Virus record (IMG/VR): IMGVR_UViG_3300044617_001027
DNA: 64,000 nt
Strand: one strand, 5' to 3'
From: an uncultured virus (IMG/VR IMGVR_UViG_3300044617_001027)
Taxonomy: Duplodnaviria > Heunggongvirae > Uroviricota > Caudoviricetes
In this document: positions 14,849-63,888 of the stretch, one piece after another
Position numbering within the stretch: position 1 is the stretch's first letter
Layout: every line of letters begins with the position of its first letter
Made by a program: the position numbers and the translations under genes
The notes under the pieces: generated by a model
What the model saw: the letters and a program-made list of their open reading frames with translations, nothing else
Told to the model about the DNA's origin: nothing
The model's database searches: none

Positions 14849-17131
14849 TTAATATACTTGTCTTATAAAGGATACGAGAACATATCTAACTCCGGAAGTT
14901 ACAGGTCTTGCACCATGCCTATGTGTTATCTGTCCCGGATGTATTGTTAACTCACCTACTTCTCCTTTAACTAATTTCTTTTGTTTTGAAAACCATGTAC
15001 CTCCTCCCTCGTATTCATCATTCAAAGTAAGTACGGTAGAGAATGCAGAATCATCATGGTGTAGGGATAAGTGCCCTTGATTTTCCGGTGTGTATTTTAT
15101 AATAAAGTTTTCGGAGCTAAATTTCTTCCATTTATCTCCAGTAAGTACAAAATTAGATTTTACGAGAGGATATATGTAAGTATTTAAAAACATGTCATAA
15201 GCATCATGTAATTGAAATTCATTGATAAGCATGTCATGAGTTGGATAATAATAATGTCTATCTTTTGTCCATTTTCCACATTCTTCTGCTAATCTTATAA
15301 CTTCATTGCAAAATTCTTTTTTAAATGCATGTAAATGTAAGACATCAGGTATAGGTTCATCTACAATTAAATCATATTCTTTATTCTTTAATGCAGGATT
15401 GATATACATGGATGACCATTTATCTACATCTTTTGTTAGATAGATGTTAGATGCAAATGAGTTACTTGATGTTTTACTTGTTTTTGCATTACTTGTTTGA
15501 CTTACTATAGATTCTTTTAAACTATATGCAGTAATGTCTTTCCATATAAATGCTAAATCTAATCTTTCATTGTTGTTTGAGTATGTTGATGCTATGAAGT
15601 CATCTACTGGTAAGATGTATTTTTCAAAGTTCTGTTCTATTATTCTTTCTATGCCTACTTTTGATAACATGTAGGCATGAGATAACCATGAGTATCCTGG
15701 ATGTATATATAATTCATTTTGTATGTCTATGTCCCCGCCGATTTTTTGTCTTCCTAAATATAATAGTCCCCAATCGTATAATGCTATTTCTTTCGCGGGG
15801 AACTCTCCATTTACTTTAAAATCATCCTCTAAAATTAAAATAGAATCATAATTTTTCTTTTTAGCATCTTTCCATACAGATAAATGAGATAAAGCACATC
15901 CAATCTCTCCAGGCAATATATCTCGGTTATAATATGAATTACTATGATTATCTATTTTCCAACTATTGTATAAAGACCAATCAAAATCTACTTTAACATT
16001 TCTACCATCTATAGCTTTAAATAAATGAAACTCACCCGGTATGATACCTAGTTTATTAAATTCGGCGGTGTATCTATTAATAGCTTCATCAGATACATCA
16101 AAAGTAATCACATAGACAGCATCTATCTTTAATCTATTTTCCATGACATTAATATTTATAAATTCTTTAGCAATCATTTTAGGATTAAAAGCATCATATA
16201 CATTTAAATTTGATGTAGATGAATTAGTAAGCATTTTAAAATTATCATTAGACAATACACATGATAACCATGAATCAAAATCAATATAATTAAATACAGT
16301 TTCTTTTAATCCTGCTCTTAATCTTGTTATAGGAATCAATCCTAACATTTGCATTTCAACAGCAGATACACAAAATGTCTCATCATAATTAGAAGGATAT
16401 AACCAATACTTTTTATTACTCGCAAAAGTCATTAAAGCATCTTTACTCATAGATCCATGATAGTACACATTTTTATACGTGCTTTTAACATAAGAAAAAT
16501 GCTTCTCATAGAATTTTTCTCCGTATTTTGGCGTTACTATGTATAAAGATGATTGAGGTCTATGATATAAAATCTGTCTCCAATGTATCAATATTTCTCT
16601 TAATCCTCTTTCTGCATGAGATATATAAATGTAAGAATCATCAATAATTAATTTATCTGACTTTTCTATATGTTTTACTGCATTGTATAACATGATAGAA
16701 GGAACATTCGGAAAATGTTTATCAAATTCTCCCTTATGGTACTTAGATACACAAATAACACTTTCAAATTTAAGATGATTAAATACTTTATCCTGTAAAT
16801 TATCAATCTCCTCCCCCTTATAGAAATTGTAGAAGAAAGGGTCTGTGTTGTGTATCCAAAAATAAGATTTATCGTAACTATTCTCTGATATTAAATCTAT
16901 GTAATGAGTGTAATTTAGAGCAATTAGGATATCAGACCCTACATTATAATCCTTCGTGTAAATAACGCCATTTAAAGCGTTCTCCTGCACTATCTCTCCC
17001 GTGATATATACTTCGTGACCTAAGGATGCAAAAGCCTCTGCAAGATGACGTAAGGCCCATTCAGTGCCAGCGAAGTTATCTCCGCTGGCATGAAATTGAG
17101 AGTAGTATCCAACATAAAACTTAATTATCAT
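14849..17131 (-). CDS. Three-domain enzyme: GT-B (GT4-like) glycosyltransferase + GT25 (COLGALT-like) + PLOD-like 2OG-Fe(II) lysyl hydroxylase
   Basis: GT-B motifs AGTEW and YPSNYDETFCVSAVE. GT25 motifs AIDG, GEIGCALSH, ILEDD, LLYLGR and LPVDDF. Hydroxylase motifs HHDDS, YEGGGT and HPGQITHRHGARPVTSGVRYVLVSF. Confidence 0.85.
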   Translation of the reverse strand: MIIKFYVGYYSQFHASGDNFAGTEWALRHLAEAFASLGHEVYITGEIVQENALNGVIYTKDYNVGSDILIALNYTHYIDLISENSYDKSYFWIHNTDPFFYNFYKGEEIDNLQDKVFNHLKFESVICVSKYHKGEFDKHFPNVPSIMLYNAVKHIEKSDKLIIDDSYIYISHAERGLREILIHWRQILYHRPQSSLYIVTPKYGEKFYEKHFSYVKSTYKNVYYHGSMSKDALMTFASNKKYWLYPSNYDETFCVSAVEMQMLGLIPITRLRAGLKETVFNYIDFDSWLSCVLSNDNFKMLTNSSTSNLNVYDAFNPKMIAKEFININVMENRLKIDAVYVITFDVSDEAINRYTAEFNKLGIIPGEFHLFKAIDGRNVKVDFDWSLYNSWKIDNHSNSYYNRDILPGEIGCALSHLSVWKDAKKKNYDSILILEDDFKVNGEFPAKEIALYDWGLLYLGRQKIGGDIDIQNELYIHPGYSWLSHAYMLSKVGIERIIEQNFEKYILPVDDFIASTYSNNNERLDLAFIWKDITAYSLKESIVSQTSNAKTSKTSSNSFASNIYLTKDVDKWSSMYINPALKNKEYDLIVDEPIPDVLHLHAFKKEFCNEVIRLAEECGKWTKDRHYYYPTHDMLINEFQLHDAYDMFLNTYIYPLVKSNFVLTGDKWKKFSSENFIIKYTPENQGHLSLHHDDSAFSTVLTLNDEYEGGGTWFSKQKKLVKGEVGELTIHPGQITHRHGARPVTSGVRYVLVSFIRQVY

Positions 17132-17134
17132 AAA

Positions 17135-17800: not shown

Positions 17801-17830
17801 GTAGTTTTTATAATAAATACGTTTTACAAT

Positions 17831-18097
17831 TTAGTATTTGCTAATATAGTTGCCATCTTTTTTTACAGCAGGAGATCTTTTTAATTTAATATAAGGATCG
17901 TCAATAGTTTTATGAATGTACAGGTAATTAATATTAGATAAAAATTTTTCAATCAATGTTTTTTCATTTGACAATGCAGTTAATTTTTGATTTATGTAAG
18001 CCTCCTTATCCGGATTTTCTAGTAATGCTTTTCCTAAATCATTAATTTTCTCATCAATCTTTTTTAAATCTTTAATTTTTCTGTTTACGTTTGTCAT
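17831..18097 (-). CDS. Hypothetical protein
   Basis: 88-aa ORF with an A-rich start context; fills the gap after the capsid terminator. Confidence 0.55.
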   Translation of the reverse strand: MTNVNRKIKDLKKIDEKINDLGKALLENPDKEAYINQKLTALSNEKTLIEKFLSNINYLYIHKTIDDPYIKLKRSPAVKKDGNYISKY

Positions 18098-18147
18098 GAT
18101 TTTTATTTTTTAAAACAAAGTAGATATAGATTAAGTTCAGTCTAAAT

Positions 18148-18179
18148 AAAAAAGGCGGGGCTTTTTAGAAGCCCCGCCT
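18148..18179 (-). terminator. Intrinsic terminator after the major capsid gene
   Basis: Minus strand reads AGGCGGGGCTT-CTAAA-AAGCCCCGCCT-TTTTT, 30 nt after the capsid stop codon. Confidence 0.9.
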
Positions 18180-18209
18180 GTATATCAATAAATTATGAAC
18201 ACTTTAATA

Positions 18210-19853
18210 TTATAGAGAATCTAATCCGTGAACATAAATCTTTCCGTAGTATTCAGGACGAACCATTTTCTTGGCATACCTCGTCATGATACCTTTTCTT
18301 GGAGTGAAGTTTTCCGGATCATATACTAGAGGAGTCATAATTAACGGAATATATGGTGCGTAAACAGCTCCTGTTTCTAGGAATTGAGCGCCTCTATAGC
18401 CCATTAACAATAAGTTCTCGGTCATATATGGATTCTTGTATACAGTAAATCTGCTATTTAACAAACCTACTTTCTGTACACCCATTGCAAATTTAGCTTG
18501 ATCACCATTAGTGTCAGCTGCGTATCCTGGGATTGATTCAAGGATAGTAGCAATCGTTGGAGATGTAACAATAAAGTTAGCACCACCTCTCATTGTTAAT
18601 CGGTGAATTTCATTGGATACTTTCTGCATTTTAGTTCCGATTGTTTGGAACCAAGTGCCTTGATTGTAGAATTGACCAGTTGTGGCTGCATTTGTGAAAT
18701 TAGTTGAACCAGGATCATATTGGAATCCAATCCTTGCTGACCATCTCTCTACTGTTTGAGCTTCTGAAACTAACATGTCTAAAATCTCCAAATCAATTTC
18801 CTGAGAAATATATTCTGAAAGCATAGAAGTTAATTCAGCCTCTGCGTCAATAGAGTGATATGCGTTAAGATCCTGCGCGAATTCTGGTGTCCATTTAGCT
18901 TTTAACTTACGTGTTTTAGACGTAATGGCCTCAGAGCGCATTTCCAAATTGATTTCTGGAATTGGTAAATCCTCTTTATTACCTCCCGCTTGAGTTTTAC
19001 CCTCTTCGAAGTCACCTCTAGTAAGGTCGGTAGGTTGTTTGTGATAATTTACTTTTACATTAGACATTGTGGTAGAACCAGAAACAATGAATACGATTCT
19101 ATTGTTAGTCAAGTCATAAGACGTAAACTGTTGGAATGTATCGTTAATGTTAGTTCCTGTTACTGTAAATGCTCTAACTCCTAGTGGATCAAATCCTGAA
19201 ACAGAGTCAGTAGATACAAATACTTTACGTAACTTTGTATTGCTCTTGTATGATGCAGAGAAGTTAGTATCGTAGTTAATATCAGAAGTCATGTTAACAG
19301 ATCCTGTAAAGAACTTAGTGGTATTAATTCTATTTATACTACCTGTGAAAGACAGAGTAGAACTTGAATAGTCATTAATAGAATAGCTAAATCTTCCAGC
19401 ACCGTAAAGACCTTGAGTACCTGCTGTACCTCCCTTATCTGAATCAGTAATACCAAATAGAGAGTCTTTCTGAGAATTTTTACCTTGATTGGCAAAGAAT
19501 CCTGGTTGTGATGTACCGTATTTGAAATCTAAGAAGAATACTAGACCTGAAGGTAAGTTCATCGGCTGGATGCTAACAAAATCTTTAGCCGCAATAGAAG
19601 AGAAAATTCTTCGTACTAAAGGTAATGCTACACCTGCCCATTCTTCTGAATTAGAAGCAGTGCCAGTTCTGTTAGCTTCTGTTACGATTTGACGAGCTTG
19701 ATTTTCCAAAAGTACTGCTAAGTGCGGTTTCTCTCTTTTTTCATCCAAGCCCTCAAGTAAACCAGTGGGTTCCCACTTGGTTATGTATTTCATCGCCTCC
19801 GCTTTTTGTGTCCTGTTATAGTCATGCGGAAGCATGTGGTCTAAATTTCCCAT
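18210..19853 (-). CDS. gp23: Major capsid protein (T4 gp23-like)
   Basis: Motifs IQPMNLPSGLVFFL, KTRKLKAKWTPEFAQDLNAYHSIDAEAELT, YAPYIPL and FTPRKGIMTRY. Confidence 0.96.
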   Translation of the reverse strand: MGNLDHMLPHDYNRTQKAEAMKYITKWEPTGLLEGLDEKREKPHLAVLLENQARQIVTEANRTGTASNSEEWAGVALPLVRRIFSSIAAKDFVSIQPMNLPSGLVFFLDFKYGTSQPGFFANQGKNSQKDSLFGITDSDKGGTAGTQGLYGAGRFSYSINDYSSSTLSFTGSINRINTTKFFTGSVNMTSDINYDTNFSASYKSNTKLRKVFVSTDSVSGFDPLGVRAFTVTGTNINDTFQQFTSYDLTNNRIVFIVSGSTTMSNVKVNYHKQPTDLTRGDFEEGKTQAGGNKEDLPIPEINLEMRSEAITSKTRKLKAKWTPEFAQDLNAYHSIDAEAELTSMLSEYISQEIDLEILDMLVSEAQTVERWSARIGFQYDPGSTNFTNAATTGQFYNQGTWFQTIGTKMQKVSNEIHRLTMRGGANFIVTSPTIATILESIPGYAADTNGDQAKFAMGVQKVGLLNSRFTVYKNPYMTENLLLMGYRGAQFLETGAVYAPYIPLIMTPLVYDPENFTPRKGIMTRYAKKMVRPEYYGKIYVHGLDSL

Positions 19854-19857
19854 ATTT

Positions 19858-20775
19858 TTACTTAATTATACCTGCAAGCTCTTGTAATCTTGCACGTAGA
19901 TTGTTTGATTCGTTTACAATATTTGATTTAGTGGCAGCAGAAGGAGCTGTACTGTTAGTTGGTTTTGAAGCAAAAGATTCGGTAATATTTTTAGATTTTT
20001 TACCTTTGTTTGCATCTACACCTTCATGTACTTTAGCATAAGTCGAATATAATAATTTAGCCTCTCTGATTGTGACTACACGCTCAAAGTTTTCTAAAAT
20101 ATCTTTCTTCTGATTTTCTGATAAAGCGTAGTTACGGAAAAGTTTAGAAGTGTAAAGTAATTTAGAATTTAACAGATTAACTTCTTGAAGCATTCCTTTA
20201 AGTTGATTTACAACTTCATAAGCTTCTTTTAATTCGTTTTGCATCCGTTTCATGTCTTTATTTTCTTCCTCTTCGCCATCTTCTTCTTCTCCTTCTCCAA
20301 TAGCTTGTGAAAACATAGACTCTAAAGCACCCACGACTTCTTTACGAGTAAAATACTTAGGACCTTGAGGGTCTTCTGTGTCGCTGTCGTAATTGTCCAT
20401 TTTGTTGTCCCCAGTTCCAATGTTAGAAGATTTTAACTCTTCCTCTAATTCAGCTAAGATTTCTTCTATAGAAGCAGATTCATTTTCTTGCTCTTTATCA
20501 TCTTCTTCGCCGTCATAAGCCTCTTCTACTTCGTCTTCTTCTTCGGCTTCCTGCATCTTAGATTTTGTATCACCGTGGCCTTTCTTCTTTTGAAGCCAAG
20601 GTGGTTGTTCTCCTTCTTCCATTTTTTTATCTTTTTCTTCTTCTTCTTCTTTACTTTCAAGAAGTGGAGATACTTTGTAGAAGATTGACTCTTCTAAAGT
20701 TGCTTTTGCATTTTGCATTGCCGTATCTTTTATGGCTTTTGCATCTGCAATTGCGGATTTTAATAAATCGTTCAT
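19858..20775 (-). CDS. Prohead core / scaffold protein (gp22-like)
   Basis: Acidic coiled coil directly upstream of the capsid gene, with many (L/I)xE sites. Confidence 0.7.
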   Translation of the reverse strand: MNDLLKSAIADAKAIKDTAMQNAKATLEESIFYKVSPLLESKEEEEEKDKKMEEGEQPPWLQKKKGHGDTKSKMQEAEEEDEVEEAYDGEEDDKEQENESASIEEILAELEEELKSSNIGTGDNKMDNYDSDTEDPQGPKYFTRKEVVGALESMFSQAIGEGEEEDGEEEENKDMKRMQNELKEAYEVVNQLKGMLQEVNLLNSKLLYTSKLFRNYALSENQKKDILENFERVVTIREAKLLYSTYAKVHEGVDANKGKKSKNITESFASKPTNSTAPSAATKSNIVNESNNLRARLQELAGIIK

Positions 20776-27624: not shown

Positions 27625-28243
27625 CTATATTTAAATCTTCTTCTTTTATATTATATGTTCCCATGATATCATCTCTTAAATTACTAAAATCAGATCTAAT
27701 CTTATCTAAAAATGATTCTTTATTTTCAATTGACCATTTTTCAATAGATCCGTCTGCATGAGAATATCCCATGTTATCAAATGATCTTAATAAAATTTCT
27801 ACTTCTTTAGATGCCTCTTTTAAAAATGATACCGCATTCTCTTTCTTTTTATCATGAACATAAGTATCAAATTTTCCATTTAGCTTCAAGTCTGCTTCAT
27901 ATTTTATTGTACATTCTAAACATCTTCCTGTCTTTTTTCCCAATTTATAATCTGCTTGACCGAAAAGTTTGCCGTCACATGTATCTAAACAATTAGGAAA
28001 TTTACTTATGCTATCTAATTCTTTTAGTATTTCTCTAACTCCCTTAGATCTTTTTACTTTATACCCATCTCTTTGTTCCCATTCGGTTACATGACCCATA
28101 GGTGAAACATCTTCCCATATATCTCCTACTTTTCTTATTTCGGAATCTTCCTTCTTTCTATATCCTATAGTTGTTCTGTTCTGGGTTTTGTGTTCTCCTA
28201 TTAGAAGTTTTTTTACCGCTTCTACATTTCTTAATTTACTCAT
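27611..28243 (-). CDS. Hypothetical protein with two CxxxC/CxxC pairs
   Basis: CLDTC...RCLEC; directly upstream of the terminase. Confidence 0.6.
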
Positions 28244-31200
28244 AGTTTTCTCCTTTTTCTAATTTTGTAACTCTTTTAGTTAAATCCTTTATTAAATCAT
28301 ATAATTCCTGTATAGCTTTTAGATTATAAACCGAAAGTTTATCATAGTTAACAGCTAGAACTCCTTTTTGTCCTTCTATCTTAAACTCTTTTAATAAACC
28401 TGTTTTAAGTCCGTCGGTTATATCTTGAGCTATAATACCTACTTCTTTACCCTCTAAGTTAGATGGAATCCTATGAGATGAAGATGTTTTATTTACTTCT
28501 AAAATAACACCTTTCATTTCATCTGTATTCCAATTATAATTAACAGGTTTTATCGTATATAGTTGCTCTAATACAGAATCTATTTCCTCTATATCTTTTT
28601 TTAGTCTCCTATCTGAGAATGCTGGAAATGGACCTCCTGATGAGCTTCCTTTTTGCCCTTTCTCTCCTTTGAATCCGGTTGGACCAGTTGGACCGGGAGG
28701 GCCCGGAGGGCCGGGGTCTCCTGGCAATCCTTGTTCTCCTGCTCCCGTAGGACCTATTGAACCTTGCGGACCGGGTCCGCCGGAAGGGCCGGGAGGGCCG
28801 GGTCCACCGGGAGGGCCAGTAGGGCCAGGGGTACCTGAACCGGTTGGACCGGTAAATCCTTGAGGACCAGTAGGGCCAGGTCCTCCGGGAGTACCTGTGC
28901 CAGTAGGGCCGGTAAATCCTTGAGGTCCGGGTCCACCACTAGGTCCAGTAAATCCTTGAGGTCCGGGTCCACCACTAGGTCCAGTAAATCCTTGAGGTCC
29001 GGGTCCACCACTAGGTCCAGTAAATCCTTGAGGTCCGGGTTCTCCGGTAAATCCTTGAGGACCTATACCTGCTAATCCAGTAAATCCTTGAAATCCTTGG
29101 TTGCCTTGCGGGCCAGCCACAGAGCTTGGATTACCTGTAGGTCCTTGGTTGCCTTGCGAGCCCTGAAAACCTTGAGGACCGGGAGCTCCCGGAGGGCTTA
29201 TTATACTAGGTCCTTGTCTTCCTTGAAAACCCTGTGTACCTACTGTGCCTTGTAGTCCTGTTGGACCTTGGTTTCCTTGAGGTCCCGGTCCGCCGGGTTC
29301 TCCTGTAGGGCCTTGAAGTCCTACTCCTGACAAACCTGTAGGGCCTTGATTACCTTGTGTACCTGCTGTTCCTTGAAAACCTGTTGGTCCTTGATTACCT
29401 TGTGGTCCTTGCCTTCCTTGAAAACCCTGTGTACCTACTGTGCCTTGTAGTCCTGTTGGACCTTGGTTTCCTTGAGGTCCTATATCCCCTTTCTGACCTT
29501 TGTCGCCTGTTAAACCAGGTTGGCCTTTAAATCCTATACTTCCTTTAGTCCCTTTATCGCCTTCACTTCCCTTATCTCCTTTATATCCTTTATAGCCAAT
29601 TTCCCCTTTACTTCCTTTAAAATCTCCTTTAATTCCTTTATCTCCTTTAACTCCTTTATCTCCCTTACTCCCCGTAGGTCCAGGAGGACCTATTTTAGAA
29701 CTTGGTATAGGAGATGGACTAGGAGCAAAAATTCCTATATTTTCAGGAGATGACATATTATGTACTAACACATCTTCTACAAAAAAATTTTCATTTTTCT
29801 CTACGCTTAAATTATATACAGTACTAGATGTTGCGTATGAATAAATATTAGATATCTTTTCATAAGATAGTGTTTTGTAATTAAAGAGTTCATCGTTTAC
29901 AGATAAATCTTTAGCTTTTTTCCAATATTTATCATACCATCCTTTAACGTAAAATGGATGTTCTTCAGTACATTGTATATTATTATTTATAACATATAAA
30001 TAATTTGATTTTCCTACATGTTTATATATTATAGTATCTTCTTGTAGTGTTTTATTATCTATGTTATAAGACATGATTGATTGACCTACTAAAGCTTCCT
30101 CTATTGTTATGTAAACATTATTCAATGTTAATATTTTAGTAGACGGAATAAAACAAGTTGGGCCTACTGATCCTGAAAATCCTTTGTCTCCTTTGTCTCC
30201 TATTTCTCCTTTATCTCCTACACTGCCCTTCTGACCTATAGTTCCTTGTAGACCCGTTATGCCTTGATTACCCTGAGGTCCTTGATTACCCTGAAATCCG
30301 GTAAAACCTTGTAGTCCTTGATTACCCTGATTACCTTGCGGTCCTTGATTGCCTTGGAAACCTTGTGTACCTACTATTCCTTGAAAACCTTGTGTACCTA
30401 CTGTACCTTGTATGCCCTGTATTCCCTGATTACCTTGCGGTCCTTGGTTGCCCTGCGGCCCTTCTACAGAACTTGGATTACCGGTAAGACCTTGGTTTCC
30501 TTGTAGTCCTTGATTGCCTTGTGTGCCAATTGTTCCTTGAATACCTGTCGGACCTTGATTTCCTTGTGAGCCTTGATTACCCTGCGCTCCGGTAGTACCC
30601 TGTAGTCCAGTAGGGCCTTGATTACCTTGCGGTCCTTGATTGCCTTGGAAACCTTGAGTTCCTACTGTTCCTTGAATACCTGTCGGACCTTGATTTCCCT
30701 GTAAGCCTATAGTTCCTTGTAAACCTGTTGGTCCTTGATTGCCTTGTGTGCCAATTATTCCTTGAATACCTGTCGGACCTTGATTTCCCTGTGAGCCTAT
30801 AGTTCCTTGTAAACCTATTGGTCCTTGATTGCCTTGAGAGCCTTTGAAGTTTCCTTTTTCTCCTTTCGGCCCTTTTTCACCACCGCCAGCTATAGAAACA
30901 AATCCTTTAAAACATTCTCCAAAAGTTATTTCTATAGTATTTTCGTCTATGGCAGTATAATTTTCGGGGATAACGGAGTTCCCGTCATAGGAGTATATAG
31001 TAAATACAGGGTATTGTATTCCTGTACCGTGGTTAATTGTAATAACATTACAACTATTTAAAGAACCAGTAAATACGGTATCTCCTAATTCACCTTTAGA
31101 CCCACTTATTCCCTTAAGCCCTTCCTCCCCCTTCTGTCCTTTGCTTCCTTTAAAATTTCCTTTTTCTCCTTTGTTACCCTTTCCGGAGGAGCTAGCTATT

Positions 31201-33215
31201 AGAGCTTGAAATGCGGGGCTACTATTGAACGTGTTTATTAAAAGCTGTTCGTCAATAGTAACATCAACATTAACTTTAACTCCATAGATGGTTGTAGAAA
31301 AATTAGCAGAAACTCCGTTAGCATTTAAATATTCTATTTCAAAAATATATTCAGTATCTATTTTTGCTATTGGTAAATTATCCAATGGAATATCAATACA
31401 AAATTCATTAGGAGTTCCTCCGTCTGATGCACTTGGAAATATATCAATGTCAGAAACATTCCATTGCCCTGCATTTATAATAAAATTAGGCTTTATATTA
31501 TCTTCAGATGTGGCTTTAAATGTAAAAGTCTTCTTTATTTCAGACTTATTATTACCGCCTATTAAAGATCCTAAGAAAGTACCAAAGGAGTTCTTTTCTG
31601 ATGTGCCAGATGGGGATGATGCATTTACCTTATTTATAGATAATGGAGATTTTTCTACATCCGGTCCTTGAATGTATATGTCAAGTTGTGGAGTTTTTCC
31701 ATTAGCGTCTTTTTCGGAAAATGCAGATATTTGTACAGTATATTCAGTGTTAGGAACTGATTTGGATAAGAAAGAATCTTTTACTGTTATATTTACTACT
31801 TCATTTTCTTGCTTATTGTGCTGTACGTCTAAGGCGTTTATTATATTTCCGCTGTTGGCAGATGTAGTTACTCCCCCAGCACCTAAGTTTTGATAAGATG
31901 AATTTTGCTTTCTAAACTTATTAATATCAAAATAGCTAGATATGTCAGAGCTGTCCTTTATATTTCCTACTTTCTTATTCTCTATACCCCCATTAGCAGA
32001 AAAATCATAAGAAGTAGGATCTGTTAATTTACTTGTTTTGGGTATTTTAAATTCTCCTAAACTAACTGGACTTCCTACCCCTCCGGCGGCTTTTGCCGAA
32101 ACTTTTACTCTATCAACATCTCCGGAAACAGGTTTAGCATTTTTAACACATATTTTAGCGTATCCTGTTTTCTTTTGTCCATCGCTTGTATTTGGACTTT
32201 TAAAATAGTCTATACATATATTTGATGAATCGAATTTTGTAATATAAATTTCAGATGGTTCTCTTTTTTTATTTACATAGGACTCTCTATAGAAAAACTG
32301 TTTATCTACCTTTATTTGAGTACTACTAATTACCTCTACGATGGTTGCTGTGTAAGAAGGAACTGTTGGGGAATAACCAGAAGGTAAATCTCCGGGTAAA
32401 TACTTGGAAATGTTAGGAGTTAAAGAGATAGTTCCTTTCTCCATTTCTTTTTTAAATGGAGCGCCGGTATTAGCTACTATTGTGCTAAGGTTATTTGCGT
32501 CAGTTGTTATAGAAAAGTTACCGGAATTAGCTAAACTTCCCGATGTATTTACGGTAGGTGAGGATTCAATAGGTACTCCTTCAAATAATGTAGGTATATT
32601 AGAGGAATAGTTGGAAGAATATTGAGAAGGGGGTGCGGAGGATACATAAGATAAACTAACTGCATGACAACTTCCTGTAGCTCTGCTTCCGGAAAAGTTT
32701 TGAAAAGCTCTTGTTTCAGGAGTTAAATCTACTTTGGGAGGTATAGTATATTTTATATCTCCTACTGTTTTTTTCTTAATATTACACAACAATTTACCTA
32801 CCCATATAATATTAGGTGACGATAAATTTGTTACTTTTCTATTTCTTAGTACATCGAAATTAGCTGTACCTGCTATATAAATTTCACAATTTCCTATGGG
32901 TACCTTATCTCCTATGGTAACAGTTACAATAGCGGATCCATTAGAATTTGCAACATTTTTTATTTCGTGTGGAATTAAATTGCCCTCCGAATCATAGACT
33001 TCAACAAAAACTTGAGTTCCTTTAACTAAGTTTTGCGTTGGGTTGATTCCTATTTCATTAGACCCTTTTAAAAATTCCGCAGGTAGAGATAAGCCAAAAT
33101 AATTAGAACTTAAAGCATCACCATCAAAAAGAGTAAATTCATTTATATAGCTCTTTATCCCAGAGCTAGTTAATTTTTTATTATATTCAGATGATGATGT
33201 TACTCCAGAAGCCAT
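28236..33215 (-). CDS. Giant collagen-like fibre with an internal Hint domain and a C-terminal S74 autocleaving chaperone
   Basis: Long Gly-X-Y tracts; Hint CFIPSTKI...[22 protein letters not shown]74 [13 protein letters not shown]...VGIIAQDI...VNYDKL...AIQEL. Confidence 0.88.
29757..30155 (-). other. Hint (intein-like) domain, 133 aa, without a homing endonuclease
   Basis: Starts at Cys (CFIPST), has block B CTEEHPFY and ends His-Asn. The +1 residue is Met. Confidence 0.85.
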
Positions 33216-33218
33216 TTA

Positions 33219-36200
33219 TTATGATATTAATTGGGAATGTCCGTTATCCTTTACAATAAATAGTTCCTTTGCTACATAATCTTTAACTACATCTAAATGT
33301 GATATGCATAATATAAATCTAAAATATGAAGTAAGCTCTTCCAAGAATAATCCTACGTTAGCAATATTATCAGAATCTAATACACCAAATCCCTCATCTA
33401 TGAAAAAGAAGTCAGGTTTTGGGAGTACAGTAACATGATTTAATGCTGCTCTTATGGCTAAGGATGATATAAATCTTTCCATGCCAGATGCTAAAGATAG
33501 AGGCCATTTAGGTCCATTTACATAAGATATAAATACTTCCAATGTTTTATCAGATAACTCAAATTGAATATTGAATGCTGCTACATTTTTTAGAGCATCA
33601 TTGACAACATTTTCTAATACAGGTAAATAATTTTTAATAATGAAAAGAGGAATTCCATCTCTTCTAGTAGCCTTCTCAAAAACAAAATAATTATTATAAG
33701 TTAAAGTGTCATCCTTAAACTTTTTAATTTTTATTTTGATGTCTTTGATTTTTGATTCATTGCTAGTTATTGTAGATTTATGCCCTCCGATAGTATAAGC
33801 TAATTGATATACAGCATCATCTATTAATTTTTTCTCATCTAATAATTTGGCTATTTCTCTATCTATCTCAGCGTTTTTCTGCTCTATGTCCTTGTAGGAT
33901 TCTTGCTCTTTTAGCTTTTCGGAGTAATCTAAAATCAAGTTTTTTGAGATTTGTATTTTCTCCTTAATAATATTTGCTTGGCTTTCTATATTGTCTAAAT
34001 TAGATTTAAGCCTATCTGTTTCATTTTTCTTATCGTTGTACTTTTTATATAGAGAGTCTGCTGTTTCTAAATTCTTTACAATTTCTCCTAATTCGTTTTT
34101 ACTTTGTTTGAGTTTATCTAGTTTGTTTAGTAACTCCGGATATTCTTTTTTAGCTTTTTCTCCATCTAATGCGTACTTGTTGTTTTTTACGCAATACACA
34201 CAGTTAGGATCATGCTCGTAACCTTGTAGATGGTCTATTAACTTACCACTAGATTTTATTTCAGATTCAGCTACTGCAATGTCCCTGTCAAAATCAGATA
34301 ATGTTTTTCTTATCGTAACTAAATCAGAAGATACGTCAGCTACTTCTCCCATAGATTCTAATTCGGATAAATGCGTTTTAAGGGCATTTCTAGCCTCTAC
34401 AAACGACTTTCTCTTATCTTCTAAGGATGAACTAAGGGTTGCCTCATTTCTGCTCTCCTCGTCTATTTTTGTGGCGTAGTTTACAGATTGCTTAGGGTAT
34501 GGAGTAAGTTCCTTTCTTTTGTTTTCTATTTGTATGGACAGGACATCAGAACTCTTTTTATTTAACTCTAAGCTAGTTTCAACTTGTGTTAGCTTAGACT
34601 TTATATCTATTATGTTATTTTCATACTCCGTTACAGATTCGTTGTATTTTTGTTTTTGGTGATTCTCAATTTCATATTTTAATTGTTTGAGATGCTCTTT
34701 AGATGTATCATTTAATTTCTCAAAGATGTCTATATCAAAATACTTGTACAATAAATCCTTTTTGTCTTTTTGAGTCTTGTCAATAAAGTCAGATTTATTA
34801 TGTTGATCATACATTGTTATAAGCATGAAATTCTCATAACTTCCTAGATACTTTCTAATGCTGTCATTTGTTTCATATCTTTGCTCGCCGTTTAAAGAAG
34901 TTCCATCCTCTTTATAGAAATTAACGATAACTTTTACTTTCCCATCTTTTCCTTTCTTGCCATTACGCTCTATAAAATAAGACTCTCCTGCAACGGATAA
35001 TTCTAATTTACAGGAAAAGAAATCAGAAGATGTATTCATTACTTCGGCTCCACTACTTGTTTTACTACATTTGTCAAAAATACAGTAAGTCATAGCGTCT
35101 AATAAAGTAGATTTTCCAGAAGCATTTGGTGAGAATAATCCAACTAGTCCTCCTAACTCTCCTAAATTAAATACATTGCCCTCTCCGTAGGAAAACATAT
35201 TAGAAAATTCAAATCGTATAGGCTTCCATGTTACACCTATAAACTCGGAAGGCTCATCTAATTCTAAGGAAGCTGTTTTATGTATATCTAAGAATTTATC
35301 CGCTTGGTATTCCTGTTTTAACTCGTTTTGAACATATCTCTCTAGCATTGAGTGTCTCCATTCGAAGTCTCTTATTATGTTCTCTTTGTCTAGTGATACT
35401 TCTCCTTTACCATTGTCTATAATAAATTTAGTTACTTTTGGTTTTTTTATACGGAGAACATTATATTTTTTTTCTAAGGCTAAACAAAAGGAGTCTATAA
35501 ATTCTTGAGTGCAATTTTCGGCGGTGATAGCTACATTAAGATTATATGGTAAATCTCCAGGTATTTTTTCAGCTACTTTATCATTTTTCAATTTAAATGT
35601 ATAATATCCATTTGAAGATGCTATCTTAATGAACTCACTTGTATTCTTATTTAAATCCCATTCTATAATTCCATGTGTTAAATCTTCTCCAAAGTTCTGT
35701 TGTATTAAACTAGATGGATAAGCTGCTGTCTTTTCTAAATTGAGATATTGATGTTTATGAATGTCTCCCAATAATATGTAATCATAATCTGCATGTTCTA
35801 ATACATCTAAATAATTTCCTTCTAATAGATATCCGTATGCTGTTGCCGAGTTCTTTACCGGTCCATGATACATTAATATCTTGGTTTCTGCATCAAAAGA
35901 TTTTGCGGGGATTACATTTTCAATTTTATCTTTGACATGTAATAAACTAAATCCTATTTGTTCATATTGATATACATTTGTTTCATTCAAGAAATGTAAT
36001 GTAGGTAAATTTAAAGTATTTATGATAGGAGTTAATGCATCTAATCTTGTTTTATTATTTAGATTTAAGTCATGATTTCCTAATATTACTATGGTAGGAA
36101 GCATGTTACATAATGTAGATAATAGATTAGATACTACTGAGAATAATTCTGGAGACATGTTTGTTTTTGAATGTACTATATCCCCGCCCAAAAATATAAT

Positions 36201-36350
36201 AGAATTAGGCGTCATTCTCTCCTCAATGATTTTATACAATTTTTCAAACACTTCTATGTATTCCTCATGCCTTTGATAATTGTAAACATGAATATCTGAA
36301 ATGTGGAAAATCTTATCGACTTTTCTTCCTGTGTCCTTTATTAGAATCAT
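33219..36350 (-). CDS. Fused Mre11/SbcD phosphoesterase and Rad50/SbcC ATPase (gp47-gp46-like)
   Basis: Phosphoesterase motifs HISDIH, GGDIVH, GNHD and LGDIH. ATPase motifs NASGKST (Walker A), CVYC zinc hook in a coiled coil, ASGME signature, FFIDEGFGVLD and ISH. Confidence 0.92.
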   Translation of the reverse strand: MILIKDTGRKVDKIFHISDIHVYNYQRHEEYIEVFEKLYKIIEERMTPNSIIFLGGDIVHSKTNMSPELFSVVSNLLSTLCNMLPTIVILGNHDLNLNNKTRLDALTPIINTLNLPTLHFLNETNVYQYEQIGFSLLHVKDKIENVIPAKSFDAETKILMYHGPVKNSATAYGYLLEGNYLDVLEHADYDYILLGDIHKHQYLNLEKTAAYPSSLIQQNFGEDLTHGIIEWDLNKNTSEFIKIASSNGYYTFKLKNDKVAEKIPGDLPYNLNVAITAENCTQEFIDSFCLALEKKYNVLRIKKPKVTKFIIDNGKGEVSLDKENIIRDFEWRHSMLERYVQNELKQEYQADKFLDIHKTASLELDEPSEFIGVTWKPIRFEFSNMFSYGEGNVFNLGELGGLVGLFSPNASGKSTLLDAMTYCIFDKCSKTSSGAEVMNTSSDFFSCKLELSVAGESYFIERNGKKGKDGKVKVIVNFYKEDGTSLNGEQRYETNDSIRKYLGSYENFMLITMYDQHNKSDFIDKTQKDKKDLLYKYFDIDIFEKLNDTSKEHLKQLKYEIENHQKQKYNESVTEYENNIIDIKSKLTQVETSLELNKKSSDVLSIQIENKRKELTPYPKQSVNYATKIDEESRNEATLSSSLEDKRKSFVEARNALKTHLSELESMGEVADVSSDLVTIRKTLSDFDRDIAVAESEIKSSGKLIDHLQGYEHDPNCVYCVKNNKYALDGEKAKKEYPELLNKLDKLKQSKNELGEIVKNLETADSLYKKYNDKKNETDRLKSNLDNIESQANIIKEKIQISKNLILDYSEKLKEQESYKDIEQKNAEIDREIAKLLDEKKLIDDAVYQLAYTIGGHKSTITSNESKIKDIKIKIKKFKDDTLTYNNYFVFEKATRRDGIPLFIIKNYLPVLENVVNDALKNVAAFNIQFELSDKTLEVFISYVNGPKWPLSLASGMERFISSLAIRAALNHVTVLPKPDFFFIDEGFGVLDSDNIANVGLFLEELTSYFRFILCISHLDVVKDYVAKELFIVKDNGHSQLIS

Positions 36351-49007: not shown

Positions 49008-51260
49008 TTAATTATTCTTTCGGGAGAATGGATCGTAAGGAGGATTACCTCTACTACCTCCTGTACCACTACTGCCACCTGTACTACGGCCATTCGTTCG
49101 CATGAATGGAATGGGTCCACCACCGCCCGTGCTACCACCACCTGTGCCACCACCACCTGTATTATCACCGCCTGTATTATTACCAATATTTTGATAACTT
49201 AGAAAGTCTATGGTATTTCCCGGAATGCCTCGTGTTAAATCTATGGAACTAGTATCTTGTCCTCCACTACCTCCCCCTCCGCCAGGAGTTTCTGTTGTAG
49301 GGCAGTTAAAATTATTTAAATCTATGAAAACATTAACTAAAGGAGGAGCTTGATTTCTATCTATAAGAGTAGAATTACCTCTATATTGGTAACTCTTATT
49401 TCCGCTATTTAAAAATAAAGTGCAGATTTGATTAATACTACCTATACTTAGAGAAGTGTATATTTTATCATTTTCGTCAGTACAAGATACAAGTTCATAT
49501 ATTACTATTTTAGTAGTATCTCCGCCGCCGCCTGAAGGGCCTCCACCTCCAATGCCCGGACAATTTGTAACTCCTTTTATTTCTAGTAAATCAGTAAGTA
49601 TTGCTATAGCTAGTGTGGTGGGATAGAAATTTGGTTCTAATTCATCCCAATAATAAGAAAGACGTTTTGTAACGCTATAATAAATTTGATTAGCTTTAGG
49701 TTGTGTGGCGATATACCCAGGTATATCATTTGAATTACATGGAATCATTCTCCAGTATTTATTACCTGCTCCTGTACTAGTACCTCCTGTTCCTCCACCT
49801 GTATCTGTTCCTCCTCCGGTACTAGGACCTGTTCCTCCACCTGTATCTGTTCCTCCTCCGGTACCAGGACCTGTTCCTCCACCTGTATCTGTTCCTCCAC
49901 CTGTATTTCCTCCTCCGGTACCAGGACCTGTTCCTCCACCTGTATTATCTTTAGGGCATTCAGGACAAAGAGAATTAGTTCCAGATGCTCCTGTAGGTCC
50001 AGCAGGTCCTTGCGGTCCTATGGGACCAAGTCCGCCAAGTTGACCATTTTGTCCCGGCTGACCATTCTGTCCGGGTAATCCGTTAGTTCCATTCTGTCCA
50101 TTAACTCCGGGTTGTCCATTAGCTCCAGCAGGTCCATTAGCTCCATCTTTACCATCCTTGCCATCTTTACCATCTTTACCGGCGGGTCCAGCAGGTCCTT
50201 GAGGTCCAGGTAAAGGTATTGAGCCTCCTCCTACTACATTCAATCCATCTTTACCGTCTTTACCAGGTCTTCCTTCAGAGCCACTAACGATAATAACAAA
50301 AGGTTCTGCCGGGATGTTATTAATAATTGTCGAAGGTATGTTATTAATAATTGGAACCATAGGGTCAATAATGTTTCTTACTTTTTTCCTAACAGCAGGT
50401 GTCCAAGATGAAGATAAGTCAAGACAATTCCCATTATTATTTGTGTTTATAAAATAGTAAGTGTATCCTTCCAAGGGTCTTGCTCCAACTTCAGCAATTT
50501 TAACAAATGTACCTAATGGGTAAGTAGCTAATTCGGAGAAATCTACTCGTTCAATAGATACTACGTCGTTATATGTTTTATTTCTTTCAAACATCATAAC
50601 TTCTAATGTCTCATTGTTAGGAATAAGACATACCGAGATATCTGTTAATGCTTGATTATTACCTCCAATAAAATAATTAAAATTTGCATCAATTATTTTA
50701 GAAAGTATAAAATCAGAAACGATAACTTTTTCAGGTCTTATAAAATAATACCCAGGATCTACAGATAAGGTAGTCCCTTGTAATTTGTAACTTATTGGAA
50801 CATATTTTATTCCTTTAAGATTTACTTTTAATTTTGGTTTATTGGCTTTTTTTATATCTTCAGTGGAATATCTATTTTTATTTTGTCCCTCTATTTCAGG
50901 CAATCTTTCATTTATTGTTCCGAAGATGACTTTTTCTACATTCCCTTCGTATCTTCTAACAATTTTATAATTTACATAATCATCAGTTTCACTAGATGTG
51001 TTAATTTCATTTTTTGGGACGGGAAGAGATATTTCTAATTTATTATTTACATCTAATGCATCTCCAATTTTTATTAATTCTTTAGACTCTTCCGTAGTAA
51101 ATCTTCCGGACATGTATTTTCCATACTCGTCTACATGATATTGACCTTTATATATGTCTCCATTTAAATAAGTAAAATCTCCAGTAGATAAGTTAGGACC
51201 TGATCTTTTATTGTTTGGATCTGATAATCTATGTATATTTATGATATTATTCTCTTCCAC
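49008..51260 (-). CDS. Structural protein with a collagen-like tract and Gly/Thr-rich repeats
   Basis: GPQGPAGPAGKDGKDG...GQNGQPG tract and GGGTDTGGGTGP repeats. Confidence 0.75.
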   Translation of the reverse strand: MEENNIINIHRLSDPNNKRSGPNLSTGDFTYLNGDIYKGQYHVDEYGKYMSGRFTTEESKELIKIGDALDVNNKLEISLPVPKNEINTSSETDDYVNYKIVRRYEGNVEKVIFGTINERLPEIEGQNKNRYSTEDIKKANKPKLKVNLKGIKYVPISYKLQGTTLSVDPGYYFIRPEKVIVSDFILSKIIDANFNYFIGGNNQALTDISVCLIPNNETLEVMMFERNKTYNDVVSIERVDFSELATYPLGTFVKIAEVGARPLEGYTYYFINTNNNGNCLDLSSSWTPAVRKKVRNIIDPMVPIINNIPSTIINNIPAEPFVIIVSGSEGRPGKDGKDGLNVVGGGSIPLPGPQGPAGPAGKDGKDGKDGKDGANGPAGANGQPGVNGQNGTNGLPGQNGQPGQNGQLGGLGPIGPQGPAGPTGASGTNSLCPECPKDNTGGGTGPGTGGGNTGGGTDTGGGTGPGTGGGTDTGGGTGPSTGGGTDTGGGTGGTSTGAGNKYWRMIPCNSNDIPGYIATQPKANQIYYSVTKRLSYYWDELEPNFYPTTLAIAILTDLLEIKGVTNCPGIGGGGPSGGGGDTTKIVIYELVSCTDENDKIYTSLSIGSINQICTLFLNSGNKSYQYRGNSTLIDRNQAPPLVNVFIDLNNFNCPTTETPGGGGGSGGQDTSSIDLTRGIPGNTIDFLSYQNIGNNTGGDNTGGGGTGGGSTGGGGPIPFMRTNGRSTGGSSGTGGSRGNPPYDPFSRKNN
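49788..49943. repeat. Degenerate tandem repeats encoding GGGT(D/G)T/GPGT
   Basis: Repeated cctgttcctccacctgtatctgttcctcc units. Confidence 0.8.
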
Positions 51261-62751: not shown

Positions 62752-63888
62752 ATGCTAATTTACAGGCCTACTATTATTTCTGGTTCGGGATATTACTCCG
62801 GGTCTTTTGATGGAGACGGGTCTAGGTTATATAACATACCATCATCTTCCTACGCTATAACTGCCTCCTATGCTTTAAATGGAGGAACCGGAGGTGGTGA
62901 AAAAGGTGATAAAGGAGAAATGGGAGATTCTGTTTTTACCTCCTCTTTACAAGGAGTATTAGTAACAGTTAATCACAATTTAGATTTAGAATATCCTGTT
63001 TACAATATTTATGATAATTTAGGAAAAGAGGTAATACCTAAGGAATTTACCATAATTAATCCAAATTCCGTACAAGTAAATTTCGGCATACCATTTACCG
63101 GCTCTATAAGTATTTCCGCTGGTCAACAAGGTTTTAAAGGACAAAAAGGGAGTAAAGGAGAAGTTGGTGTCAAGGGAAATAAAGGAGAGTTAGGAGAAGC
63201 TGTTTATAGTTCATCTATTCAAGGCACTGTTATTTCTGTGGCTCATAATTTAGATATTCAATATCCTGTTTTTACTATTTATGATAATTTAGGAGATAAT
63301 ATAATACCTAAATCTTTTTCTGTTATAAATGATAATACCGTTGAAGTTGATTTCGGTATTGGATTTACTGGCTCTATAAGCATTGCAAGCGGTATAAAAG
63401 GGCAAAAAGGAGAACCTTACAATGGATCTGTAATATATGAGAGCGGTAGTAAAATAGGTATAGGCATTCCAAATCCTACATTTCAATTACAATTATCTAC
63501 AAATAGTGCAGGTAAACCAACTGGAGGATCTTGGTCGGATTCTTCGGATATAAGGTTAAAGACAGATATAAAAGACATAGATAATCCACTACATATATTA
63601 AAAAAAATAAGAGGAGTTACTTTTAGATGGAAAGATGGTTTACGAGATGATTGTAACTCCGGAGGTTTTATAGCAGATGAATTAGAGAATGTATTCCCCT
63701 CTTGGGTCACAATACAAGAGTCTTCTGAGAAAGAAAAACTGTATATAGAAGACAATAAAGTAAAAACTATCTCGCTACCCTTTTATTTTGATGCTATTAT
63801 AGTTGAATCAATAAAAAAACAGCAAGAAGAAATAGAAATGCTAAAAACTAGTATTTTAGAATTAGAACTACTTATTAAAAATACATAA
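62752..63888 (+). CDS. Short fibre protein with Gly-X-Lys collagen segments, two tandem beta domains and an S74 chaperone
   Basis: GEKGDKGEMG and GFKGQKGSKGEVGVKGNKGELG; two copies of HNLD..YPV..IYD; SDIRLKTDIKDI...GFIADEL. Confidence 0.8.
   Translation: MLIYRPTIISGSGYYSGSFDGDGSRLYNIPSSSYAITASYALNGGTGGGEKGDKGEMGDSVFTSSLQGVLVTVNHNLDLEYPVYNIYDNLGKEVIPKEFTIINPNSVQVNFGIPFTGSISISAGQQGFKGQKGSKGEVGVKGNKGELGEAVYSSSIQGTVISVAHNLDIQYPVFTIYDNLGDNIIPKSFSVINDNTVEVDFGIGFTGSISIASGIKGQKGEPYNGSVIYESGSKIGIGIPNPTFQLQLSTNSAGKPTGGSWSDSSDIRLKTDIKDIDNPLHILKKIRGVTFRWKDGLRDDCNSGGFIADELENVFPSWVTIQESSEKEKLYIEDNKVKTISLPFYFDAIIVESIKKQQEEIEMLKTSILELELLIKNT

Follow-up and report, generated by a model that had tools for sequence, protein, structure and literature searches.

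The question raised by this 64,000-nucleotide (nt) stretch of an uncultured caudoviricete virus (IMG/VR record IMGVR_UViG_3300044617_001027), called the window below, is whether the lysines of its collagen-like tail-fibre protein P0001, which occupy the Y position of the Gly-X-Y triplets and are gathered in blocks, are the substrates of a three-domain enzyme with a lysyl hydroxylase (LH) domain encoded in the same window. Collagen lysyl hydroxylases target the motif X-Lys-Gly, with Lys in the Y position, and a first-pass annotation made from the letters of the window had named the Lys blocks as the predicted substrate on account of their Y-position bias. The prediction stands here on a different footing: the argument from the bias fails, while an LH/GT25 fusion is encoded in the window, the relatives of this enzyme adjoin Lys-Y-rich collagens, and the residues following the Y-lysines of P0001 fit. 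On these sequence grounds, the X-Lys-Gly sites of P0001 are probably the substrates of a phage enzyme similar to the mimivirus protein L230, and the blocks at the domain junctions would serve as charged clamps besides. The fibre protein and its parts (amino acids, aa; open reading frame, ORF; L222, an orthologous locus described below) are as follows.

28236..33215, minus strand: tail-fibre gene P0001, 1659 aa, identified by ORF, Pfam and PHROGs
28640..31190, minus strand: collagen region, aa 676-1525, with 200 Gly-X-Y triplets and Lys in 0 X and 30 Y positions
31095..31190, minus strand: Lys block 1, aa 676-707 including SGKG, from the N-terminal domain to the small beta domain
30882..31070, minus strand: small beta-rich domain, about aa 716-778
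30855..30881, minus strand: Lys block 2, aa 779-787, GEKGPKGEK, immediately past the beta domain
30237..30842, minus strand: Gln-rich spacer, aa 792-993, without Lys, with Lys-rich collagen instead in the orthologue L222
30183..30236, minus strand: Lys block 3, aa 994-1011, immediately ahead of the Hint-like domain and kept in the orthologue
29757..30155, minus strand: Hint/BIL-like domain (BIL, bacterial intein-like), aa 1021-1153, with a Cys start and a His-Asn end, followed by Met
29490..29672, minus strand: Lys block 4, aa 1182-1242, 14 Y-Lys, past the Hint-like domain and kept in the orthologue
28650..28676, minus strand: Lys block 5, aa 1514-1522, GFKGEKGQK, just ahead of the S74 domain
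28419..28616, minus strand: Peptidase_S74 intramolecular chaperone domain, aa 1534-1599, from Pfam

The protein consists of an N-terminal domain (aa 1-675), a collagen region (aa 676-1526) broken by two folded domains, and a C-terminal S74 domain, and it is assigned by PHROGs to tail-fibre families, with the Pfam matches Collagen (E 9.2e-72) and Peptidase_S74 (E 6.6e-10). Both memberships are borne out, the first by the 200 triplets, the tracts of up to 41 triplets and the family PF01391, a triple helix being predicted, and the second by a score of 39.6 bits against a cut-off of 22 for PF13884 at the C-terminus. As counted with the regular expression (G..){3,}, the triplets contain Lys in 0 X and 30 Y positions, Gln in 5 and 77, and Pro in 48 and 20, respectively, which agrees with the earlier placement of Lys in Y; four extra Lys, each with Gly as the next residue, occur where the frame is broken by one residue (SGKG, NFKG twice, and DFKG). 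The compositional zoning described in the first-pass annotation is likewise found in the protein, since all the strings quoted for it, including GPPGPPGPT, are present in aa 676-1525, and adjacent pairs of Lys triplets number 15, whereas 100,000 permutations gave 4.35 on average and 13 at most; therefore, the zoning exceeds chance. As read from the coordinates, every one of the five Lys blocks (aa 680-707, 779-787, 994-1011, 1182-1242, and 1514-1522) is the end of a collagen segment meeting a folded part, namely the N-terminal domain, either side of the small beta and Hint-like domains, or the S74 domain, so that the flanking of the beta domain, the Hint domain and the S74 end by Lys blocks was correctly described. 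The short non-collagen breaks within the Gln- and Pro-rich tracts, as read from the sequence, contain no Lys. A frame break of the form G-[N/D]-F-K-G-S occurs three times, each within a Lys block (aa 686-692, 788-794, and 1197-1203, or about 31140-31160, 30834-30854, and 29607-29627 of the window), and is kept in the close orthologues, L222 retaining the third copy only.

The enzyme gene is flanked by a PhoH gene and a head-tail adaptor-like gene and belongs to a same-strand block of structural (head and tail) genes.

14849..17131, minus strand: enzyme gene, 760 aa, a GT-B, GT25 and LH fusion
16142-17131, minus strand: GT-B (GT4-like) domain, about aa 1-330
15491-16129, minus strand: GT25 domain, about aa 335-547
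14852-15427, minus strand: lysyl hydroxylase domain, about aa 569-760

In the PDB sequence search, the LH domain was matched to human LH3 (E 1.8e-23, query aa 571-756) and to mimivirus L230 (E 2.2e-20), and no prolyl hydroxylase was found among the 12 PDB sequence matches of the enzyme at E <= 0.01. The residues H691, D693, H739, and R749 are shared by all 16 sequences compared (the enzyme and 15 relatives) and align with the Fe(II) and 2-oxoglutarate (2OG) residues of LH3, which places the domain in the LH family. The GT25 assignment is given by Glyco_transf_25 (PF01755; 65.4 bits against a cut-off of 24) and by the match of aa 367-547 to human COLGALT1 (E 3.6e-11, chain residues 341-533); as candidates for the acidic metal-binding motif, E435 and D437 are present in every member of the family alignment. 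In the AlphaFold2 model of the enzyme (mean predicted local distance difference test score 82.4), the LH domain was superposed by Foldseek on the L230 chain 6ax6_B with a target-normalised template-modelling (TM) score of 0.87, a root-mean-square deviation of 2.3 A over 207 columns and 30% identity, and the model also matched LH3 (E 3e-20) and COLGALT1 (9evj_A, E 2.2e-15). For the N-terminal third, the best structural matches were retaining GT-B enzymes of the GT4 type, such as an alpha-1,2-glucosyltransferase (7fga_B, E 2e-11, TM 0.62), with a sub-threshold Pfam match to Glycos_transf_1 (23.3 bits against 26.4), and the enzyme relatives carry PF13439 or PF00534. The Pfam match of the enzyme to 2OG-FeII_Oxy_3 was also below its cut-off. 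As judged from the sequence matches and the model, the 760-aa protein is a junction of the GT-B, GT25, and LH domains, with the GT25-LH order being that of L230, and the GT4-like domain would add a second, alpha-linked sugar. In the LH class, a dimer is required for activity.

The relatives of this enzyme and the collagens encoded beside them provide the comparative link between the two proteins. A word-indexed protein search with aa 340-760 yielded 235 proteins at E <= 1e-5, and among the 120 of them listed there are forms of about 750-850 aa and of about 430 aa, almost solely metagenomic and named in the sources as lipopolysaccharide (LPS) glycosyltransferases. In IMG/VR, an enzyme relative is encoded by 424 of the 461 pattern-matched stretches, of which 80 loci were kept, their enzymes forming 15 clusters at 70% identity and 5 at 50%. 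The flanks of the 28 closest loci (L001-L028) contain no collagen ORF, in agreement with the spacing of 11 kb between the fibre and enzyme genes in the window. In 40 of the 52 distant loci (L029-L080; 34-43% identity to the window enzyme), a Lys-Y-rich collagen ORF on the same strand ends 41-1952 nt upstream of the enzyme gene; in 5 of the 52 the sole collagen is a small ORF 1.3-2.4 kb downstream, and in 7 an upstream collagen could not show, as less than 1.8 kb of upstream DNA is present. By reading of the listings, the upstream arrangement is found in 10 of the 15 clusters at 70% identity. In the contig G029, with a two-domain enzyme, a collagen ORF of 127 triplets (Lys X 0, Y 37) lies, by its coordinates, roughly 16-20 kb from the enzyme gene. 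Among phage isolates, 15 records match the enzyme, none over 80% of its length, and nine of them are Synechococcus phages. In Synechococcus phage S-CAM9, the tail-fibre gene N161109_027 contains a collagen tract of 59 triplets (Lys X 0, Y 22; 6/22 followed by Gly-Asp/Glu), and the order of genes is the fibre, two 2OG oxygenase genes and then a GT25+LH homologue about 1.5 kb from the fibre.

Some small genes are located between the collagen and GT25-LH genes elsewhere. In L029 (9444-9998), this is a gene for a DUF6445 protein with no PDB sequence match, and in S-CAM9 (L224, 10761-11926) there are the two genes annotated as 2OG-Fe(II) oxygenases; the intervening genes of both may encode further collagen-modifying enzymes. 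The enzyme-adjacent collagen of L029 (5819-9358) has 360 triplets with 115 Y-Lys, and its Arg is found in 19 X and 0 Y positions, in the recurring motif GEKGR/GDKGR, which is the reverse of the usual preference of collagen Arg for Y.

For comparison with collagens of phages that lack the enzyme, viral-contig collagens were sampled by a periodic Gly-codon pattern that is blind to Lys, giving 137 loci and 115 contigs with tracts, from which 6 giant-virus contigs and 2 enzyme-carrying contigs were set aside to leave 107 control contigs. The controls comprise 9,493 triplets with 138 Lys in X and 311 in Y (3.3% of triplets), and the 37 distinct enzyme-linked sets comprise 10,823 triplets with 31 Lys in X and 3,699 in Y (34% of triplets). 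The two enzyme-positive contigs met in the Lys-blind sample, L177 (the same contig as L071) and L195 (a GT25+LH ORF beside the collagen), have together no Lys in X and 205 in Y over 428 triplets, the density of L177 being the highest in the sample and that of L195 among the higher. Half or fewer of the lysines are in Y in 11 of the 35 controls with at least five Lys. Arg is distributed between X and Y as 114 and 37 in the enzyme-linked collagens and as 143 and 165 in the controls; since Arg is not Y-favoured in the former, the basic residue of the Y position there is specifically Lys. In the L095 contig, where 125 of the 221 collagen triplets have Thr in Y, a stand-alone GT25-like ORF was found (G017:C1:21799-22392, 252 aa, E 7e-16, no LH domain), which could glycosylate something other than hydroxylysine.

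The residues that follow the Y-lysines separate the two classes of collagen. In the controls, 251 of 304 Y-Lys are followed by Gly-Asp/Glu, with a per-contig median of 0.94 (19 contigs), and in the enzyme-linked collagens 1260 of 3305, with a per-set median of 0.36 (37 sets; Mann-Whitney p 2e-7). For P0001 the count is 13 of 30 (binomial p 1e-6 against 0.83) and for the orthologue L222 it is 24 of 61. Thus, the context of the P0001 Y-lysines is supported as matching the enzyme-linked class and not the enzyme-free one. Low fractions occur also among the controls, as in L133 (0.50) and L207 (0.40, with no enzyme in a record that is 84% complete).

Orthologues of P0001 were found in three contigs by a search with its N-terminal domain. 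One of them, L221, has 95% identity over this domain and the same zoning. Another, L222 (G011:C1:66700-71700; 91% identity in the N-terminal domain), is located in a contig that also encodes the enzyme, and the fibre orthologues and the enzyme co-occur at the same spacing in the contigs G011 and G013. L222 keeps the Lys blocks beside the folded domains almost letter for letter and has Lys-rich collagen in place of the Gln-rich spacer, with Lys in 0 X and 59 Y positions of 158 triplets. Therefore, the junction blocks are conserved modules and the spacer is exchangeable; such a wholesale swap between close relatives suggests a recombining, fast-changing fibre shaft. Conserved zoning was rejected, as L222 carries Lys-Y across the former Gln-rich spacer, and the proposal that modification would be concentrated in patches along the fibre has to be narrowed in the same way: with 59 Y-Lys spread over 158 triplets in L222, the patchiness is particular to this phage.

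Several observations weigh against the modification of P0001 by the phage enzyme. Most of the controls were checked for the enzyme within flanks of 6-10 kb, and a spacing of 11 kb as in the window would escape. Among the controls with at least five Lys, 9 of 35 put at least 90% of Lys in Y, and the Y-Lys density of P0001, 0.15, is below that of 33 of the 37 enzyme-linked sets and is reached by 15 of the 107 controls. Four records of 85-100% completeness put 79-100% of their collagen Lys in Y, and no enzyme was found by whole-record search in these (L199, 95% complete; L181, 100%; L179, 90%; L081, 85%), nor in L084, L142, L110 or L201. In a reverse sample of contigs with five consecutive G-X-K triplets, 58 of which were scorable with their flanks, 47 are of the Lys-Gly-Asp/Glu type, with the enzyme within 10 kb in 0 of the 47. 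The enzyme-linked collagens belong to related lineages, falling into only 5 clusters at 50% identity, and their counts are therefore not independent; in five loci with a two-domain enzyme, the sole collagen in the vicinity is a small one of the Lys-Gly-Asp/Glu type (9/9, 8/8, and 5/5 in the three distinct sets scored, L064, L067, and L078). In the window itself, the P0001 gene is 11 kb from the enzyme gene and not adjacent to it, 13 of its 30 Y-lysines are in Lys-Gly-Asp/Glu, and all the blocks are at domain junctions, as clamps would be.

The other 11 contigs of the reverse sample are not of the Lys-Gly-Asp/Glu type; two of these 11 have an LH match in the locus (Fisher p 0.033), and in three more the whole-record searches returned nothing beyond weak matches, all to ORFs of about 200 aa. 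Whole-record searches gave no match in L266, L282, L289, L253 or L276, whose records are 5-37% complete, a sixth (L279) being left out, and no enzyme match was found in the short-flank loci L340 (6% complete) and L321 (24%), which are beyond the 58. As 47 of the 58 G-X-K-run contigs are of the salt-bridge type with no enzyme within 10 kb, Lys-Y blocks as such are ordinary in phage collagens. The position or the density of Lys was accordingly rejected as a sufficient criterion, the enzyme-free collagens overlapping P0001 on both, and the Y bias alone does not point to a substrate, because the bias and the G-X-K blocks are common without a nearby enzyme. Thus, the 47 contigs and the four near-complete records remove the bias and the blocks as evidence for a substrate, and the comparison of X and Y lysines with enzyme-free collagens, proposed earlier as the check, came out divided: the density is higher in the enzyme-linked collagens, but a strong Y bias is found in enzyme-free ones also.

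The foremost rival explanation is one in which the Lys blocks are purely electrostatic clamps, the helix being stabilised and nucleated by inter-chain Lys-Gly-Asp/Glu salt bridges in a phage that cannot make hydroxyproline, and the hydroxylase either leaves the blocks alone or acts on them without consequence. Lys-Gly-Glu/Asp stabilises collagen peptides, all five blocks abut folded domains and are kept in the orthologue while the intervening spacer changes, the 13 of 30 Y-lysines mentioned are accompanied by 12 of 30 with Asp/Glu in their own X position, and the same kind of block is present in the 47 of 58 contigs without the enzyme within 10 kb. However, a non-acidic residue (Asn, Gln, Ser, Ile, Val, Tyr, Thr, Phe or Pro) comes after the Gly in the remaining 17 of the 30 cases, and the 43% of P0001 is far below the 0.83-0.94 of the enzyme-free collagens. 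The phage also encodes an LH/GT25 fusion with an intact catalytic triad, and a pure clamp leaves unexplained why the enzyme relatives stand beside collagens of up to 55% Y-Lys. A role of the blocks as clamps only is therefore considered unlikely, and the substrate role, with the clamp function added to it, is preferred.

The enzyme might also modify collagen with its main substrate elsewhere, in the second S74 fibre protein of the window or in a collagen outside it, the pattern of P0001 being an inherited composition of its modules. The two other collagen proteins of the window are the following.

62752..63888, plus strand: second S74 fibre protein P0002, 378 aa, with S74 at the end
49971..50285, minus strand: collagen tract, of the GKD type, of the third structural protein P0124 (gene 49008-51260)

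In P0002, short collagen segments with Lys in Y only flank two copies of a small beta-like domain, whose likeness to the copy in P0001 was judged by eye, without alignment. The nine G-X-K-G sites, 5/9 of them followed by Asp/Glu, make it likely, judging by motif, that P0002 is a second substrate. Its Y-only lysines, the distance between the P0001 and enzyme genes, and the fact that the window is only a part of the genome are what could be expected if the main substrate were not P0001. However, of the 39 X-Lys-Gly sites counted in the collagens of the window, P0001 has 30, its orthologues accompany the enzyme at the same spacing in G011 and G013, and the LH enzymes tested accept varied X-Lys-Gly peptides (PMC9614988), all of which makes a main substrate elsewhere improbable and leaves P0001 as the principal candidate. 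The collagen of P0124 (GKDGKDGKD) provides an internal contrast, with Lys in 6 X and 0 Y positions, and is not an X-Lys-Gly substrate; therefore, the Y-only placement is specific to certain proteins and is not a genome-wide habit. In P0124 (750 aa), the GKD tract, with Lys in X and Asp in Y, is followed by Gly/Thr-rich repeats (GGGTDTGGGTGP...); no Pfam family was matched, and the PHROGs matches are solely collagen-type tail-fibre families.

An auxiliary gene for host or phage glycans or small molecules, without any link to collagen, would agree with the source annotation of homologues as 'GR25 family glycosyltransferase involved in LPS biosynthesis', with the PHROGs class of the matches ('moron, auxiliary metabolic gene') and with the sub-threshold 2OG-FeII_Oxy_3 match, but is very improbable given that the best PDB matches are the collagen enzymes LH3, L230, and COLGALT1 and that a collagen gene is directly upstream in 40 of the 52 distant loci.

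If the fibre is modified, the following course may be proposed, in which the three-domain enzyme of the phage acts on the Lys blocks of P0001 and on the short ones of P0002. Inside the infected cell, before the fibre chains fold, the Lys of X-Lys-Gly would be hydroxylated by the C-terminal 2-oxoglutarate/Fe(II) domain, the GT25 domain would add the first hexose to the new hydroxyl, and the N-terminal GT4-like GT-B domain would attach a further sugar; the C-terminal S74 domain would then trimerise the chains, the triple helix would zip, and S74 would cut itself off. As charged clamps (Lys-Gly-Asp/Glu), the same blocks would in addition stabilise the helix beside the folded domains, the two roles being compatible, as in animal collagen. 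Procollagen hydroxylases act on unfolded chains only, and the regions beside the nucleating end are the first to fold; therefore, the blocks beside the trimerising domains might be modified less than spacer sites. Candidate effects of the modification are the stability of the helix without hydroxyproline, protection from proteases or self-association, and host binding.

A broader interpretation, to be taken as tentative and rated slightly below an even chance as a whole, is that phages carry the full animal-type pathway of collagen Lys modification (LH and two sugar transferases in one polypeptide) and use it on tail fibres; that a widespread class of phage collagens with 'free Y-lysine' would exist, distinct from the ordinary salt-bridged ones; that this class would extend over several phage lineages and include one cultured cyanophage and no fewer than 424 IMG/VR contigs; and that in this phage sugar patches would be located at every junction of collagen with a folded domain. 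If this is true, the glycosylation of hydroxylysine is not confined to animals and giant viruses, and a phage-bacterium system becomes available for its study; with phage fibres modified alike, the pathway would be present in viruses of bacteria. At present, the sources mislabel the enzyme family as an LPS glycosyltransferase or a generic 2OG oxygenase, and a Y-Lys that is not followed by Gly-Asp/Glu is a simple signature that may predict modification. The sugar patches of the fibre could affect its stability, protease resistance or adsorption. A soluble single-chain enzyme active in the bacterial cytoplasm would serve the production of modified recombinant collagen, an aim raised for the mimivirus enzymes (PMC9546862).

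The window as a whole (about 32% guanine plus cytosine) is a portion of a myovirus-like genome with T4-type head and tail genes, among them those for Gp23, Portal_T4, the S77 prohead protease, the tail sheath and gp25, and its major capsid protein has 54-60% identity to those of Microcystis phage Mel-JY01 and the Flavobacterium 'immuto' phages. No close DNA relative was found by megablast of 14849-20000 against 50,697 phage records; the nearest virus record, which is 22% complete, has 59% of the sampled words in common with the window, and the tblastn matches of the fibre are limited to short S74, Hint or collagen pieces. The T4 late-promoter motif TATAAATA is not enriched in the window (21 matches against 18 expected) and permits no claim of co-regulation. 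A single ORF of 1043 aa at 33219-36350 on the minus strand joins a calcineurin-like phosphoesterase (Mre11-like) with AAA_23/SMC_N (Rad50-like) domains; in T4, the Mre11-like and Rad50-like functions are on separate proteins.

Of the two folded domains within the collagen region of P0001, the small beta domain has no Pfam match and no meaningful PDB sequence match (best E 0.066). The Hint-type Pfam matches at aa 1035-1153 are both under the curated cut-offs (Intein_splicing, E 5e-8, 33.3 bits against 35.8; PT-HINT, E 7.9e-5, 23.4 against 27.7), and this domain, which we take to resemble a bacterial intein-like domain, contains a T-x-x-H block (CTEEHPF) and is, as a domain, conserved in the orthologues. 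It was rejected as a canonical intein: although it has Cys1021 and His-Asn 1152-1153, Met comes next, and the nucleophile for canonical splicing is therefore missing. Self-cleavage, or the passing of the N-terminal part of the fibre to another nucleophile, may take place.

Hydroxylysine and its glycosides count as marks of animal collagen, with mimivirus L230 as the known outlier (PMC9614988, PMC9546862), and prokaryotic collagens are mostly neither hydroxylated nor glycosylated (PMC8968730). The prediction that co-encoded 2OG/Fe(II) dioxygenases hydroxylate prokaryotic collagen-like and tail-collar proteins was made in 2010 (Iyer et al. 2010, PMC2938197); in the accessible part of that paper, neither a PLOD-type LH-GT25 fusion nor a phage-fibre substrate is mentioned. 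In the full-text literature, whose coverage largely leaves out subscription journals, no phage lysyl hydroxylase or phage-fibre hydroxylysine was found.

Fibres with collagen and an endosialidase-type chaperone have been described (PMC12220804), and the unmodified collagen-like fibres of phages and prophages share with P0001 the Gly-X-Y repeats with Gln, Thr, and Pro preferences, the Lys-Gly-Asp/Glu blocks and the S74 end. However, in the unmodified fibres 83-94% of Y-Lys are followed by Gly-Asp/Glu and there is no nearby LH gene, whereas in P0001 the fraction is 43% and the enzyme is encoded. The closest arrangement in a cultured phage is that of S-CAM9 (KU686206, N161109_027 to N161109_031), where a Lys-Y fibre collagen is likewise followed by oxygenases and the GT25+LH homologue. 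This homologue, annotated as a hypothetical protein, has 28% identity to the window enzyme and no match to its N-terminal GT-B domain, and S-CAM9 differs further by the two extra 2OG oxygenase genes between fibre and enzyme and by its family (Kyanoviridae).

The human LH3 (PLOD3)/COLGALT1 complex (6fxk, 9evj, 8zgc) has the same two catalytic families and the same Fe(II)/2-oxoglutarate residues as the phage enzyme, with 13-14% identity over the whole-model Foldseek alignments. The human activities are, however, on two separate proteins, with the second sugar added by the GT-A domain of LH3, whereas the phage combines GT25 and LH in a single chain, with an unrelated GT-B domain as its candidate for the second transfer. 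The precedents among viruses are mimivirus L230 and the glucosyltransferase R699 (PMC9614988, PMC9546862). L230 acts on the Lys of mimivirus collagen-like proteins, hydroxylating it and then attaching glucose to the product (PMC9614988); it is a virus-encoded fusion of a GLT25D1-like glycosyltransferase with a C-terminal LH domain, as is the phage enzyme in its corresponding part, and its substrates are the mimivirus Gly-X-Y proteins (L71, R240, and others), often with Lys in Y (PMC9614988). The differences are that the host of mimivirus is an amoeba and that of the phage a bacterium, that the phage enzyme, known from its sequence and model, adds the N-terminal GT4-like GT-B domain, and that it would presumably act on a tail fibre containing Hint-like and S74 domains. 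Taken together, the phage system looks like a variant of the L230 system.

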